Below are positions 22,609 through 57,657 of a stretch of 64,000 nt of DNA, one piece after another (within the stretch, counting starts at the first letter, position 1; every line of letters begins with the position of its first letter). The position numbers and the translations under genes were made by a program. The notes under the pieces are model-generated. The model was not told where the DNA came from and made no database searches. It saw only the letters and a list, made by a program, of their open reading frames with translations. The stretch comes from Clostridia bacterium (GTDB lineage: Bacteria > Bacillota > Clostridia > TANB77 > UBA1234). The stretch spans positions 411,291-475,290 of the forward strand of contig JAFWYG010000001.1 in the NCBI GenBank assembly GCA_017522765.1, in the 5' to 3' direction.

Positions 22609-22670
22609 ATTAATTCCTCCTGAAATTCAATCTTTATTATTGTATATTTATTCAGTGAGCCGAAAAACAG

Positions 22671-22706
22671 TTACAAAAAAAGAGCTATGCAGCCTGCATA
22701 ACTCTT
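22671..22706 (-). terminator. attenuator terminator in the cysK leader
   Basis: On the minus strand, AGAGUUAUGCAG-GC-UGCAUAGCUCU followed by U7. It lies about 65 nt upstream of the cysK start. Confidence 0.6.
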
Positions 22707-22786
22707 TTATATATAATAATCCACCAGTACTATTATATACATCGCTGCAGGCAGAAAAGACCTATGCCCACATGCGAGGCATAAGC

Positions 22787-22831
22787 TTATCTACAACAAC
22801 AACATACTGTATATAATACTGATTTTTTCAT
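22787..22831 (-). CDS. cysK leader peptide MKKSVLYTVCCCCR (candidate attenuation sensor)
   Basis: ATG AAA AAA TCA GTA TTA TAT ACA GTA TGT TGT TGT TGT AGA TAA on the minus strand. SD AAAGGA sits 8 nt upstream. Confidence 0.5.
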   Translation of the reverse strand: MKKSVLYTVCCCCR

Positions 22832-22947
22832 TAAATTCATCCTTTCTAGAAATGTTTATGATTACATAATAATTGCTTTAGCACTAGAAGTCAAGCAAAA
22901 TTCGTGGTATACTTACATCATCTAATAAGAGAATAGGAGAGAAGAAA

Positions 22948-35121: not shown

Positions 35122-38100
35122 ATGAAGGTGCTATTTGCAGTTGGATCTGAGCAAGTATCAAAGAATATAGCAGATAAGTATTACGAGAAATATGGGGAAG
35201 TACTGGAATATAAAAATGTGTTTTTCTTTAAGGCATTAATTGATGAAATAAAGAGAGACAAAACCTATGACAGAATAGTTGTTAGTGAAGAAATCGAAGA
35301 GTATGCTAGAACAGCTGATTTAGAACAAGTAGATAGAAGACTATTTAACTATATCGACCAAATAACTGATGAAACGCAAGATACAGATATTATTATCATT
35401 TGCGGAAATAGAAGAAATAAAGGCGATGCTTTTATTAATAAATTATTTAGCATAGGTATATATAACTTATTAATTGGTGATGACAGAAACGTAACACCAC
35501 TTTGCGATATCTTGAAAAAACCAAAAACAAAAAGAGAGGCAAAGCAATATTTGGGAATAGATACATCACTTATTTCAGACAGTTCTATGACGAGAGACGA
35601 TGAAGTTGATGAATACCAAATAAGAAGTATTTTAAGTTATTATGACGGAATTAAAAATCAACCTGAAAGATATGTTGAAACATTTGATAGAATTGCTGAA
35701 CAATACAGTAGATTGCAATTAATAATTATATTCAATTATTTGCCACCTGCTGTAAAAAAAGCAATTGCAGAGACTGATAGATATAGACATTTAGCGGCGC
35801 CTCCAGGGGAAGCTGCTAGAGGACCACAAGGTGCTGGTCCAGCGCAACCAAAGCAACCACAACAACCTGCGGCTCAAGCACCACAAAAAACTACTATTAC
35901 AAAACCGCAAAAAGAGAAGAAAGGATTATTTGGCAATTTTAAGAAAAATAAAAACAATCCAAATAAACCAACTTCAGAACAAGCAATGGAATCATTAGCA
36001 CAAACGGGAAGCATAGATTTAAGTACAAATACACCGCCTGCAGCACCTTCAAGCCAAGCAGCAGAGCAAGCTAAACTAGCTCAAGAAAAAGCTGAAGCAG
36101 ATAAAAGAGCTGCAGAAGAAGCTGCTAAATTAAGAGAAGAAGCAGCAAAACAACAACAACAAGAAGAATTAGCGAGAAAAGCTAGAGAAGAGCAAATGCA
36201 AAGAGAGCAACAAGCGAAAGCTCAAGCACAACAAAATCAACAAGCTCAAGTTGATTCTATACAACAAGCTAAAGAAGCTGAACAAAGACGTTTACAAGAA
36301 TTAGCTAAGCAACAACAAATGCAAAGAGAGCAAGCACAAGCTAAACAAGCGGAAGCGGATGAACAAAAACGTTTGCAAGAATTAGCTAAGCAACAACAAT
36401 TACAAAGAGATCAGGCGCAAGCTAAACAAGCGGAAGCGGACGAGCAAAAACGCTTACAAGAATTAGCTAAGCAACAACAATTACAAAGAGATCAAGCGCA
36501 AGCTAAGCAAGCGGAAGCGGACGAGCAAAAACGTTTACAAGAACTAGCTAAGCAACAACAAATGCAAAGAGATCAAGCACAAGCTAAACAAGCGGAAGCA
36601 GATGAACAAAAACGTTTGCAAGAATTAGCTAAGCAACAACAAATGCAAAGAGATCAAGCACAAGCTAAACAAGCGGAAGCGGACGAACAAAAACGTTTGC
36701 AAGAATTAGCTAAGCAACAACAGCTACAAAGAGAACAACCAACACCAAGTGGCATAAATATAAAACCAAATCCAAATGCTCCAAGAGCAGTACCGAATAA
36801 AGAGTTTGATATAGATGTGGAACCGATTGCAAAGACTCCGACAGAACCACCAAAACCTGTAGAGCCCGTTAAACCGGTTGAACCACCAAAACCAGCGGAA
36901 CCAGTTCGTCCAGTAGAGCCTCCAAAGCCTGCTGAGCCAGTAAAACCAATTGAACCGCAGGGGACTGTGGTTACTCCAGTTGTACCGGTTACACCAATAT
37001 CTAATGCAACTCCAAGTGAGCCTCAACAACCTAAATATGCACCACCATCACAACATGTTCCTACACCAGAACAATTGGCTGGAGCGAAAGTTGTTTCACC
37101 AGCGTTAAGTGCTGAAGAAGCAAGAATGAAAGAACAACAAGAAAATCTTGCTAAAGAACAACAAAAAATTAGAGAAGCTCAAGAAAAATTGGAAGAAGAA
37201 AAGAGAAAATTAAAAGAAGAACAAGAAAAATTGATGACTGCTCAAAATCAGTTAAGAGCAGATGGCATGTTGCCAAATATGCCACAATATACAACTACAG
37301 TAGGGGCTAATGGAAGACCACAAGTTCCAATGGGATCTTTTAAGAAAATGGTTGTATTTGTTGGTCCAAATAAAGCGGGAACCACTTTCGTAGTAAATGC
37401 AGTAGCACATGCAATGGCGAACGAAAAAATAATGACATCAGTTTTGGACATGACTAGAGATAAAGGTATGTGGTATATATACAGCCAACAATATAGCACA
37501 GCTATGCAAAAGAAAATGGCGAACTACATGCAAAGAATATCAGATGGAGAAGAGTTATTTATCGAAACTTCAAATCCATTTTTGAAAATTTATTCTGCGC
37601 CAGGTTCTATAAGTGATGTTAGAAGAGGATATAAACATAAAAACATTATGGATGTAGTAAGAAACAATGCAAATGTTGTTTTAGTTGATGCTGACTTTAC
37701 TACTCCGATAGATTATTTTGATCATGCGGATGAGGTATATGTAGTTCAAGACTTAGATATATTGAAAATGCCAGATACAACTTTATTCTTAAGAGAGTTG
37801 AAAAATAGAGGCATGAACATGAAAAAAATAAGAGTTATCTTAAACAAATATGTTAAGACGGCCACACTAAATTCTAAGAAACTTATTCAAGTAATGAGCA
37901 CATATTCAGACCCAGGAATGACATATATGGAATCAGAACTTTTACCATCAAAAGTAGATTTCTCTACAATACCATATAATATAAATAACTATACAAAATA
38001 TACAGAAGCACTATGTACAGGTCTTAACAACTATAAGGGTTACTCAAATGATTTCTTAGCGGTAATAAGTGAAATAGTGTCAAAGATATATCAAAATGGT

Positions 38101-55590: not shown

Positions 55591-55597
55591 TCACCTT

Positions 55598-55840
55598 GTA
55601 ATGTGATGAAGAAGAGGAGTACGATTACAGCGCTTTTAGAAGAGAAAGATACCTTGGCTGAAAGTATCTAAAGTAAACTAATCAGAAGACACTTTGGAGC
55701 AGGCTTATGAAGAAAAAGTAAGTCCGTAATATATGCGTTAAATTTCTAATGAGTATAAAATTGGGTGGTACCACGTACAAAGACTATACGTCCCATGAGT
55801 TCTAGATTGAGCTCATGGGACTTTTTGTTGTTTTAAGATA
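55598..55840 (+). ncRNA. T-box riboswitch leader (probable Asp GAC specifier) of aspS
   Basis: AGAGA-like stem I region. T-box sequence AAATTGGGTGGTACCACG at 55768-55785. Terminator ACGTCCCATGAGTTC...GAGCTCATGGGAC followed by T5. Confidence 0.75.
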
Positions 55841-55899: not shown

Positions 55900-57657
55900 A
55901 TGAACGAGTACAGAACACACTATTGCCACGAACTAAGATTAGAAAACGTTGGCGAAGAAGTAAGACTTGCAGGATGGGTACAAACAGTTAGAGACTTAGG
56001 GTCTATGATGTTTGTTGACTTAAGAGACCACTATGGTGTTACACAACTTGCAATTCAAGAAGAAGCTCACTTAGAACAAATGAGAAAAGTAACAACAGAA
56101 AGTACAATTTCTATTACAGGTAAAGTTTGCGAAAGAAGTAACAAAAATCCTAACATCGCAACAGGAGATATTGAAGTTATTCCAAGCGAAATTAGAGTTA
56201 CGGGAAAAGCTAAAAACGTATTACCTTTCGAAATTAATATCGGACAAGATGTAAGAGAAGATTTAAGATTAGAATATAGATTTTTAGATTTAAGAAATGA
56301 AAAAATTCATAACAACATAGTATTTAGAGCACAAGTTATGAAAACAATTAGAGAAATTATGGATGGAATGAGATTCGTAGAAATTCAAACTCCAATCCTA
56401 ACAAGTTCATCACCAGAGGGTGCTAGAGACTTCTTAGTTCCAAGTAGATTGCATCCAGGGGAGTTTTACGCATTACCACAAGCACCACAACAATTTAAAC
56501 AATTGTTAATGATGTCTGGTTTTGATAGATATTATCAAATAGCTCCATGTTTTAGAGATGAAGACCCAAGAGCCGATAGATCACCAGGTGAGTTCTATCA
56601 ATTAGACCTTGAAATGTCTTTTGCTACACAAGAAGATGTTTTAGGTGTTGTTGAAAATGTTGTATTAAACACATTTAGAAGACATACAAAATGGAAAGTT
56701 AGTGAAGATGGAATTTTAAGAATCCCATATAGAGAAGCTATGAAAAAATATGGTAGCGACAAACCTGACCTTAGAAACCCATTAGTTCTTCAAGAAGTAA
56801 CTAAATTATTTGAAGGCACAGAATTTAAGGCGTTCCAAGATAAACATATAATCGCAATCGTAGTTCCAGGTGCTGCAAAAGAAACAAGAAAATTCTTTGA
56901 TAGCATGGGAGAGTTTGCTCAAGTTGAAGGTGGAGCAAAAGGTTTAGCATATGTAAAAGTAGAAGAAGGAAATACACTTGCTGGTGGTATTGCAAAATTC
57001 TTTACACCAGAAATGACAGAAGAATTCTTAAAAACTTATGCTAAAGAAAATGATGCTGTATTCTTCATCGCAGAAGAAGAGGAAGAAAGAGCTCAAAAAC
57101 TTGCTGGCTTAATTAGAATTGAACTTGGTAAGAGATTAGATTTACTAGAAAAAGATTGCTATAAATTCTGTTGGATAGTAGACTTCCCAATGTATGAAAA
57201 AGATGATGAAGGTAAAGTAGAATTTAACCATAACCCATTCTCAATGCCACAAGGTGGTTTAGAAGCATTAAATACAAAAGATCCTTTAGATATTTATGCT
57301 TATCAATATGACATGGTATGTAATGGTTATGAACTTGCATCTGGTGCTGTTAGAAATCATGATGTAGAAATCATGGAAAGAGCATTTGAAATTGCGGGTT
57401 ATACAAGAGAACATGTTGAAGCTAAGTTCCCAGCATTATTTAATGCATTCCAATATGGAGCTCCTCCACATGCTGGATGTGCACCAGGACTTGATAGAAT
57501 CGTTATGCTTCTTGCACAAGAAGACAGCATAAGAGAAGTAATTGCATTCCCTAAAAACAGTAAAGCAAGAGATTTGTTAATGGGAGCACCTTCTCCTGTA
57601 TATCCAAATCAATTAAAAGATGTACATATAAAATTAGATATTGAAGAGAAAAAATAA
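55900..57657 (+). CDS. aspS: aspartate--tRNA ligase
   Basis: 585 aa with class II aaRS motifs (FRDEDPRADRSP, GLDRIVMLL). SD AGGAGGAAT. Confidence 0.95.
   Translation: MNEYRTHYCHELRLENVGEEVRLAGWVQTVRDLGSMMFVDLRDHYGVTQLAIQEEAHLEQMRKVTTESTISITGKVCERSNKNPNIATGDIEVIPSEIRVTGKAKNVLPFEINIGQDVREDLRLEYRFLDLRNEKIHNNIVFRAQVMKTIREIMDGMRFVEIQTPILTSSSPEGARDFLVPSRLHPGEFYALPQAPQQFKQLLMMSGFDRYYQIAPCFRDEDPRADRSPGEFYQLDLEMSFATQEDVLGVVENVVLNTFRRHTKWKVSEDGILRIPYREAMKKYGSDKPDLRNPLVLQEVTKLFEGTEFKAFQDKHIIAIVVPGAAKETRKFFDSMGEFAQVEGGAKGLAYVKVEEGNTLAGGIAKFFTPEMTEEFLKTYAKENDAVFFIAEEEEERAQKLAGLIRIELGKRLDLLEKDCYKFCWIVDFPMYEKDDEGKVEFNHNPFSMPQGGLEALNTKDPLDIYAYQYDMVCNGYELASGAVRNHDVEIMERAFEIAGYTREHVEAKFPALFNAFQYGAPPHAGCAPGLDRIVMLLAQEDSIREVIAFPKNSKARDLLMGAPSPVYPNQLKDVHIKLDIEEKK

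Follow-up and report, generated by a model that had tools for sequence, protein, structure and literature searches.

A candidate cysteine-specific leader-peptide attenuator upstream of cysK and cysS in uncultured gut Clostridia

How is the cysteine synthase gene cysK controlled in uncultured gut Clostridia? The question is raised by a stretch of 64,000 nucleotides (nt) from the genome of a Clostridia bacterium (assembly GCA_017522765.1, contig JAFWYG010000001.1, positions 411,291 to 475,290), hereafter called the window, on whose minus strand a very short open reading frame (mini-ORF) with four consecutive cysteine codons and an intrinsic terminator precede a cysK gene. Firmicute cys genes are described as being controlled by T-boxes, S-boxes or CymR/CysR, and amino-acid leader peptides are rare in this phylum. 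To our knowledge, cysteine is usually absent from textbook lists of the amino acids that are subject to classical leader-peptide attenuation. An earlier note on this DNA had nevertheless proposed attenuation of the trpL/hisL type, keyed to cysteine. This proposal is supported here by about 26 conserved leaders, by covariation of their helices and by their target genes cysK and cysS, and it is highly likely that the element is a ribosome-mediated leader-peptide transcription attenuator which reads the supply of cysteinyl-tRNA(Cys).

The Cys-codon run is conserved in front of related genes. We compared 80 loci with relatives of the window's cysK, drawn from one-genome-per-species collections and all belonging to metagenome-assembled genomes (MAGs) of uncultured gut Clostridia or Bacilli; single loci are cited by L numbers. 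At -320 to -60 on the gene strand, 16 of the 80 loci have a run of at least three TGY codons, compared with 1.14 expected from the background rate in the same loci (Poisson P = 1.3e-13), and the opposite strand of this zone has no such run in any of the 80. In 14 of the 16 loci the run forms the 3' end of a mini-ORF of 12-16 codons that is led by a Shine-Dalgarno (SD) sequence, as in MKIRNMFVNCCCCMK, MKYRNIIFNCCCM, MILINIISNCCCMN and MNKNIIMNCCCCK. Two loci were set aside as doubtful or decayed copies, namely L059, with MCLCCCNLIIIQ at -78 but without a terminator, and L060, which lacks an in-frame start and scores 30-33 bits.

The mini-ORFs bear a coding signature. They are intact, at 12-16 codons, in 23 distinct leaders, across which the Cys codons vary synonymously (65 TGT, 14 TGC) and the length of the run changes by whole codons, with three codons in 15 leaders, four in six and five in two. 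Main-family ORFs have their stop 1-3 codons past the Cys run, and every family member has an SD sequence (GAAAGGA, GGAAGGA, GAAGGGA or AAAGGAG) 7-10 nt before the ATG. Promoters of the type TTGACA-17-TATAAT are located a short distance before the mini-ORF in L010, L015, L019, L021, L035, L042, L048 and L049 and in the cysS leaders described below. Core members furthermore contain a post-stop hairpin (AAUACUCURUCUA/UAGAYAUGAGUAUU), a box CAUGCCUACA(A/G)UAG, a stretch with complementarity to codons 3-8 of the ORF, and AACUAUGUGGG...CACAUAGUUUUUU as terminator. Outside the coding part, no block of the family is better conserved than the GCCTRCA box.

When 93 sequence sources were searched with R1, a covariance model of the termination-state fold, 26 matches scored above 60 bits. 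Each of them comprises an SD and an ATG along with a mini-ORF that contains Cys codons; no strong match in these sources has the structure without Cys codons. One of the leaders, L061 (2792-2962, 129 bits), had been missed by the run-based scan, as the middle Cys codon of its mini-ORF MILKNIIVNCYCR is changed from TGT to TAT (Cys-Tyr-Cys). It represents a natural weakened variant; in the MAG concerned, CALYAA01, a further cysK paralogue (L030) lacks a leader. Weak R1 matches include the decayed copy without in-frame start (L060) and a terminator-only remnant: L003 (2674-2778) carries a terminator near-identical to that of the window (AGAGTTATGCAGG...CATAACTTTTTTT) but no mini-ORF. The primary sequence of the window leader is unlike that of the core. 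A second model (R2), rebuilt from 18 leaders with the window and L001 (91% identical to the window) left out, finds the window leader full-length (22678-22845, minus strand, model positions 1-172) with a score of 62.5 bits (E about 2.8e-9); L001 scores 59.5 bits.

These results bear on the alternative of a random short ORF that happens to lie in AT-rich intergenic DNA beside an ordinary terminator. Cys-codon runs alone are indeed not rare, since the 64-kb window holds about 22 runs of at least three TGY codons, mostly within other reading frames, and L003 demonstrates that a window-like terminator can occur without a mini-ORF. Such a coincidence is, however, effectively refuted by the enrichment of the run at a strand-specific position and by the recognition of the window leader by a model from other genomes; promoter, SD, ORF, box and terminator are, moreover, conserved together. 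Several of the antisense Cys-codon runs in the window stem from an 81-nt tandem repeat (36280-36738, 5.7 copies, 92% matches), which would encode 27-residue repeats rich in Gln, Ala and Lys on the plus strand.

The family extends to a second gene. A metagenome scan, in which the pattern prescribed no more than the Asn-Cys run, UUGUAGA and CCURCA, gave 74 matches, of which 16 are genuine leaders; the other 58 lie in unrelated contigs and were discarded as chance matches. Three of the 16 (L094, L095, L136) are followed by a cysK homologue with 63-65% identity to that of the window, and twelve (L085, L087, L091, L100, L102, L109, L119, L135, L144, L146, L148, L154) by a cysS gene of about 490 amino acids, identified by the NCBIfam equivalog TIGR00435 (527-532 bits, cutoff 340); the remaining leader ends at a contig edge. 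Metagenome scan and covariance models together bring the total to about 26 leaders, which come from different species-level MAGs and metagenomes. Judged from this gene order, one leader family very probably controls cysK in some genomes and cysS in others. Since cysK and cysS are the target set of Cys T-boxes in cultured Firmicutes (PMC2940859), this is the strongest functional argument that the leader reads cysteine or tRNA(Cys) status.

The targets and the peptides also allow us to weigh the idea that the ORF is translated but that the signal is something other than Cys-tRNA charging, its product being a Cys-rich arrest peptide, a sensor (of a metal, a sulfur compound or redox state) or a peptide that acts in trans. 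Consecutive cysteines are chemically reactive, trans-acting leader peptides such as peTrpL exist (PMC7298713), and the family conserves Asn-Cys-Cys-Cys and the following Met or Arg fairly well. Yet the window peptide MKKSVLYTV-CCCC-R and the core peptide M..KNII.N-CCC-M/R have only the Cys run in common, and the same holds when the leader peptide MTK-CCCCC-SFCFFLQY of L054, a locus of a second class discussed below, is included. Besides, cysK and cysS are genes whose demand tracks tRNA(Cys) charging, and both are T-box(Cys) targets in other Firmicutes. In peptides of 12-16 residues with a C-terminal Cys run, most of the run would not yet have moved away from the peptidyl-transferase centre when translation ends. 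We consider a signal other than Cys-tRNA charging to be very unlikely.

Two further observations concern family members. In L070 (2644-2886) and L095 (3624-3859), about 100 nt of extra AT-rich sequence occupy the original terminator position, and a different terminator (CUAGUAGGAAAUGCGGAUUUUCUACUAG plus U run) is present whose 5' arm, too, shows complementarity to the box (CCUAC:GUAGG); by sequence, the terminator appears to have been replaced while the box pairing was kept. L021 is labelled 'uncultured Rickettsiales' and L079 'uncultured Muribaculaceae', but their leader segments have a G+C content of about 23-24% and their cysK genes are like those of the Clostridia MAGs, so that these two bins are probably mislabelled or contaminated.

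The anatomy of the window leader is summarized in Table 1. The mini-ORF with its SD, the hairpin directly behind its stop codon and the terminator with U7 are all present as the earlier note had described them. Its spacing of about 65 nt between terminator and cysK SD needs correction: the T tract ends 53 nt before the SD and 66 nt before the cysK ATG. The near-consensus promoter TTGACT-17-TATTAT directly upstream of the mini-ORF, whose -10 element ends 35 nt before the ATG, was absent from that note; no second promoter was found between terminator and cysK at the threshold of the window promoter scan. An in-frame ATG at 22840 is an unlikely leader start, as it abuts the SD. On the minus strand of the window, an AT-rich stretch separates the box from the terminator hairpin. 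A consensus terminator scan flagged the post-stop hairpin and skipped the main terminator, probably because flanking AAAA/TTTT lengthen the stem and shorten the T tail; folding was used instead. Just before the cysK start, a block GAATAAAT(T)AAAA(T/C)AAGGAGG is conserved in the window (22655-22616) and in several close relatives without the leader (L002, L005, L007 and L044).

Table 1. Features of the cysK leader in the window (window coordinates).
Feature	Position	Strand	Basis or remark
Candidate sigma-70-type promoter	-35 TTGACT 22894-22889; 17-nt spacer; -10 TATTAT 22871-22866	minus	promoter scan, 10/12 matches
Leader SD GAAAGGA	22846-22840	minus	8 nt before ATG 22831
Leader ORF ATG AAA AAA TCA GTA TTA TAT ACA GTA TGT TGT TGT TGT AGA TAA, peptide MKKSVLYTVCCCCR	22831-22787	minus	14 codons + stop
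TGT x4, proposed regulatory Cys codons	22804-22793	minus	one codon between run and stop
Region 1, 5' arm of long 1:2 hairpin, within ORF	22821-22790	minus	folding and family covariation
Post-stop inner hairpin GCUUAUGCCU/GGGCAUAGGU	22786-22760	minus	-12.0 kcal/mol; begins at first base after stop; nested at tip of 1:2
A' segment UGUGGGCA, loop and 3' arm of post-stop hairpin	22771-22764	minus	alternative partner of box (A':box)
Region 2, partner of region 1 or region 3; holds box and UAUAUAAUA (22739-22731)	22754-22725	minus	folding
Box GCCTGCA (RNA GCCUGCA)	22752-22746	minus	sequence
Antiterminator 2:3	22754-22692	minus	GCCUGCA (22752-22746):UGCAGGC (22698-22692) and UAUAUAAUA (22739-22731):UAUUAUAUA (22718-22710)
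Intrinsic terminator 3:4, arms AGAGTTATGCAG/CTGCATAGCTCT (stem AGAGUUAUGCAG/CUGCAUAGCUCU) and U7	22705-22681; U7 22681-22675	minus	folding
Regulated gene, SD AGGAGG 22621-22616, ATG 22608, 320-aa ORF	22621-21646	minus	cysteine-synthase-family

The 261-nt leader folds at -73.7 kcal/mol, as compared with -52.1 +/- 4.2 kcal/mol for dinucleotide shuffles (z -5.2). In the minimum free energy (MFE) fold, the ORF is the 5' arm of a long hairpin and the terminator stands separately. Helices of this long hairpin are GUAUGUUGUUGU:GCAGCGAUGUAU (22807-22796 with 22748-22737), whose 5' strand contains Cys codons 1-3, and CAGUAUUAU:AUAGUACUG (22821-22813 with 22733-22725). The three mutually exclusive pairings expected of an attenuator were found, including the stable alternative structure: the 1:2 fold has -41.2 kcal/mol (z -6.0), the 2:3 antiterminator -20.6 kcal/mol (z -3.8) and the 3:4 terminator -13.3 kcal/mol (z -3.95), and in each case none of 300 shuffles is as stable. 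The GCCUGCA:UGCAGGC helix that had been predicted as antiterminator exists, closes the 63-nt 2:3 structure and is extended by UAUAUAAUA:UAUUAUAUA.

Covariation in the family supports these helices. For the termination state, which comprises outer 1:2, mid 1:2, inner hairpin and terminator, a MAFFT alignment of 19 leaders has 90.9% of its cells paired, versus 30-54% in slid controls, with 18 pairs (63 cells) changed on both sides; a model-based alignment of 22 leaders has 92.5% paired versus 28-54%, with 20 such pairs (76 cells). The score is reached by none of 500 shuffles in either alignment. Within this fold, eight of the 13 pairs of the outer 1:2 helix are changed on both sides, the terminator helix is 98.5% paired in the 22 leaders with four of its nine pairs changed on both sides, and the conserved post-stop hairpin has one covarying A-U/G-C pair (10 versus 11 sequences). 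For the antiterminator, in which the box pairs with the terminator's 5' arm, the two alignments have 86.6-86.8% of their cells paired, compared with 20-52% in slid controls, and no shuffle out of 500 reaches its covariation score. In GCCUGCA:UGCAGGC, an A-U pair of most relatives has become G-C in the window and L001, and a C-G pair has become U-A in L010. The A':box helix (CUAUUGUAG:CUACAAUAG) is 92.6% paired in the MAFFT alignment versus 22-49% in slid controls, with three pairs (eight cells) changed on both sides, and 6 of 500 shuffles reach its score.

Such strong folding (z -5.2) and covarying helices would also be expected of a structured RNA that works independently of translation, for example a riboswitch that senses a sulfur metabolite or a site to which a protein or tRNA binds, with the mini-ORF as an accident of an AT-rich helix. 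Terminator/antiterminator pairs likewise form the expression platform of riboswitches and T-boxes, and the NIIxN conservation in the peptide could partly reflect the outer helix AAAUAUAAUCU. Against this stand the synonymous TGT/TGC variation, the whole-codon changes of the run and the retention of SD, ATG and a stop near the run in 23 distinct leaders, while the window type and the L054/L062 type have almost nothing but the SD-ORF-Cys run-terminator layout in common with the core. The fold has no conserved unpaired pocket; its conserved unpaired block is the Cys run itself. Between 22300 and 23200, no T-box, S-box or other Rfam 15 family matches even at E<=10, which agrees with the absence of a T-box claimed before and extends to S-adenosylmethionine (SAM) riboswitches; riboswitch models gave only sub-threshold chance matches on the leader, the best with 24 bits against a gathering score of 90. 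Together with the lack of strong model matches without Cys codons, this leaves a translation-independent RNA little probability, and we retain the leader-peptide attenuator as our interpretation.

Upstream of cysK in L001-L040, the only Rfam match at gathering thresholds is a skipping-rope RNA (RF02924) directly upstream of the gene in L026 (2745-2821, 45.7 bits). Another skipping-rope RNA lies just downstream of cysK in L014 (4099-4178, 68.6 bits), and this orphan motif may be linked to cysteine synthase loci. A T-box (RF00230, 104.7 bits) is present elsewhere in the window (55597-55798, plus strand), upstream of the aspartate--tRNA ligase gene aspS (ORF 55900-57657, plus strand; NF001750, 778.8 bits). 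By its sequence, this genome appears to use a T-box for at least one synthetase and a leader peptide for cysK.

A third alternative accepts the mini-ORF, but holds that it mainly affects cysK translation or messenger RNA (mRNA) stability, as do the polycysteine short ORFs (sORFs) of mycobacteria, and that the hairpin and U tract are no working terminator. The sole experimentally studied Cys sORF attenuator does act on translation, via SD sequestration (10.1101/834739), and the window terminator is of moderate stability. However, a GC-containing stem followed by a T tract of 4-8 (T5-T8 except in L079 and L091) is found in every member, and this helix is 98.5% paired with four covarying pairs. 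The partner of the Cys tract is region 2 and not the cysK SD; in the cysK-linked members 24-117 nt separate the terminator from the gene start downstream, a variable spacing that fits SD occlusion poorly. An action chiefly on translation or mRNA stability is thus highly improbable, and transcription attenuation remains the reading that we develop here.

The attenuator would operate as follows. Transcription would start from the promoter at 22894-22866, and a ribosome would load on the leader SD and translate MKKSVLYTVCCCCR. With plentiful Cys-tRNA(Cys), the ribosome would pass the four Cys codons and terminate translation, region 1 would then pair with region 2 and sequester the box, the 3:4 terminator would form, and RNA polymerase would halt at U7 before cysK. 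If Cys-tRNA(Cys) is scarce, the ribosome would stall on the TGT run with a footprint that leaves region 1 single-stranded; region 2 could then pair with the emerging 5' arm of the terminator (2:3), no terminator would form, and cysK would be transcribed. In most relatives, CUAUUGUAG of the post-stop hairpin may additionally pair with CUACAAUAG and hold the box once the ribosome is at the stop codon, a pairing that is weak in the window. Such a response to cysteine would depend on translation of the ORF, on stalling at the Cys codons and on kinetic coupling with RNA polymerase.

We simulated this switch by masking a 28-nt ribosome footprint, reaching from 15 nt upstream to 12 nt downstream of the first base of the A-site codon. 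In the window, L021, L048 and L079, where automatic terminator choice took alternative helices, the terminator was assigned by direct pattern matching. At equilibrium, a mask at Cys codon 1 or 2 of the full leader lowers the terminator probability from about 1.0 to 0.00-0.06 in L019, L021, L035, L042 and L048, whereas L010 retains about 0.5; in these relatives the probability is 0.94-1.0 without a ribosome or with the ribosome at the stop. The terminator is retained in every ribosome state in the window, L001, L015, L022, L049, L070 and L079.

A second test used transcripts that end before the 3' arm of the terminator, with and without masks. A footprint on the Cys codons gives the antiterminator in 12 of the 13 main-family leaders. 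The helix between box and terminator arm is absent without a ribosome and forms with an occupied Cys codon in the window, L001, L015 and L070, where the box is otherwise held in 1:2 (only partly so in some others); in L010, L019 and L049 it is partial without a ribosome and becomes longer on masking. With the ribosome at the stop, A':box and the outer 1:2 helix re-form and the terminator arm is free in L015, L035, L049, L070 and L079, and partly in L010 and L019. The box:arm pairing does not appear in the MFE folds of L022 and L094, though the complementary sequences are present.

Several observations weigh against this reading and concern above all the window copy. Its own terminator keeps a probability of 0.96-0.97 at equilibrium under every ribosome mask, and the switch must therefore be kinetic if it operates there, as in the classical trp attenuator. 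In classical attenuators, the terminator is likewise the more stable structure. The truncated window transcript forms the antiterminator with the ribosome at the stop as well, so that simple folding cannot separate 'stalled' from 'finished' in this copy, and its A':box helix is weak (-9.2 kcal/mol, z -1.8, 17/300 shuffles); it follows that discrimination has to come from ribosome release and kinetics. The antiterminator shows modest covariation, with three pairs (five cells) changed on both sides, a number of pairs that 48-52 of 500 shuffles reach. As the sequences are related, shuffle controls overstate significance throughout and the slid controls are fairer; judged from the alignments, the covariation support for this helix appears real but modest. 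The product of the regulated gene falls slightly short of the curated NCBIfam cutoffs, with 318.9 bits for TIGR01136 cysKM (cutoff 344) and 303.9 bits for TIGR01139 cysK (cutoff 351). Finally, the closest cysK relatives of the window gene (L002-L009, 70-76% identical) lack the leader. The resulting patchy distribution fits the gain, loss and hopping of attenuators that have been described before (PMC2965389).

A different Cys-run leader, unrelated to the family, lies upstream of cysK in two Bacilli MAGs (L054 2790-2913, L062 726-848). Its ORF, MTKCCCCCSFCFFL(Q/P)Y (MTKCCCCCSFCFFLQY), carries a run of five Cys codons (codons 4-8). Its start region and a segment behind the stop form a helix (AUGACUAAAU:AUUUAGUCAU), which is followed by a terminator GGUACCUAU...AUAGGAGGUCC with U run. 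Neither R1 nor R2 detects these two leaders, and folding with and without masks gave no convincing antiterminator for them. Their sequences suggest a separate class that perhaps evolved independently.

How far do these findings reach? The evidence leans slightly towards a broader view, in which the leaders constitute a sizeable, previously undescribed Cys-specific attenuator family of uncultured gut Clostridia that replaces the Cys T-box on cysK and cysS; its GCCURCA box would choose between three partners, the Cys tract, the post-stop decoy and the terminator arm, and could thereby distinguish untranslated, stop-reached and Cys-stalled states, and the MTKCCCCCSFCFFLQY leader in Bacilli MAGs would represent a repeated independent invention. 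We found no account of a Cys leader for clostridial cysK or cysS in the openly accessible literature, although an earlier description elsewhere is possible. The leader family offers one candidate mechanism for clostridia without a T-box on cysK, and it suggests that T-box and leader peptide are exchangeable on the same two targets, a biosynthetic gene and a tRNA synthetase, within one phylum. The approximately 26 natural variants, with 3-5 Cys codons and one Cys-Tyr-Cys, provide material for the question of how many rare codons an attenuator needs. As the mini-ORFs are unannotated in MAGs, an R1-like covariance model could help to annotate the cysteine regulon of uncultured gut Clostridia.

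Cys T-boxes are among the closest known systems. They occur on cysK-cysE, cysP1, cysP2 and ubiG in Clostridium perfringens and on cysS and cysES in other Firmicutes, while several clostridia lack a T-box on cysK and may use other mechanisms (PMC2940859). Cys T-boxes and the present leader have the same genes (cysK, cysS), the same proposed input (tRNA(Cys) charging) and the same output (termination versus antitermination) in common (PMC2940859). Unlike them, the present leader has no T-box sequence, specifier hairpin or tRNA-binding fold according to the Rfam T-box model, which is positive on aspS, and charging would be read via a translating ribosome rather than by direct tRNA binding.

In architecture, the leader resembles the trpL (Escherichia coli), hisL (Salmonella), leu, thr, ilv and pheA attenuators, which have an SD-led short ORF with a run of cognate codons and mutually exclusive 1:2, 2:3 and 3:4 helices. 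As in the trpL/hisL type, the regulatory codons lie inside region 1, the U-tract terminator is favoured at equilibrium and the decision would be kinetic (10.1101/834739). It differs from this type in its amino acid, cysteine, and its hosts, Firmicutes (uncultured gut Clostridia), in the position of the Cys run at the extreme 3' end of the ORF, and in the stable hairpin directly after the stop, which gives the box a third partner in most members. It also lacks sequence similarity to the Rfam leader families. Within the Firmicutes, a His leader in bacilli has been presented as the first amino-acid leader peptide of the phylum (PMC2965389).

Cysteine-reading short ORFs have been reported from other phyla. 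The polycysteine leaderless sORFs of mycobacteria (Ms5788A and relatives) are cysteine-responsive translational attenuators, and their authors considered uORF-mediated cysteine attenuation, i.e. attenuation through an upstream ORF, to be previously undescribed (10.1101/834739); Cys leader peptides without terminators have been predicted in Actinobacteria (PMC1262725). Like the present leader, these are short upstream ORFs with consecutive Cys codons near the stop, located before cysteine biosynthesis genes (10.1101/834739, PMC1262725). They are relieved by cysteine limitation (10.1101/834739; PMC1262725), as we propose for the present leader. The mycobacterial sORFs are leaderless and have no SD, whereas the present leader has an SD and a promoter about 35 nt upstream of the ATG, as well as a conserved U7 terminator and a Cys tract that pairs with region 2 (22748-22737).

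Another close system is the uORFC-8-2 motif upstream of cysS in Rhodobacterales, a predicted uORF that has two Cys codons and is followed by a terminator (PMC8632094). Both systems have tandem Cys codons in the first stem, a terminator stem with U run and a proposed ribosome-mediated mode of attenuation (PMC8632094). The uORFC-8-2 motif is alpha-proteobacterial, has its two Cys codons at positions 14-15 and precedes cysS only (PMC8632094), whereas the present family has 3-5 Cys codons, another sequence and fold, and both cysK and cysS as targets; both are known as predictions. The mechanism proposed here is a classical one; its novelty lies in the amino acid and the phylum, in a regulon that includes both cysK and cysS and, possibly, in a box with three partners.

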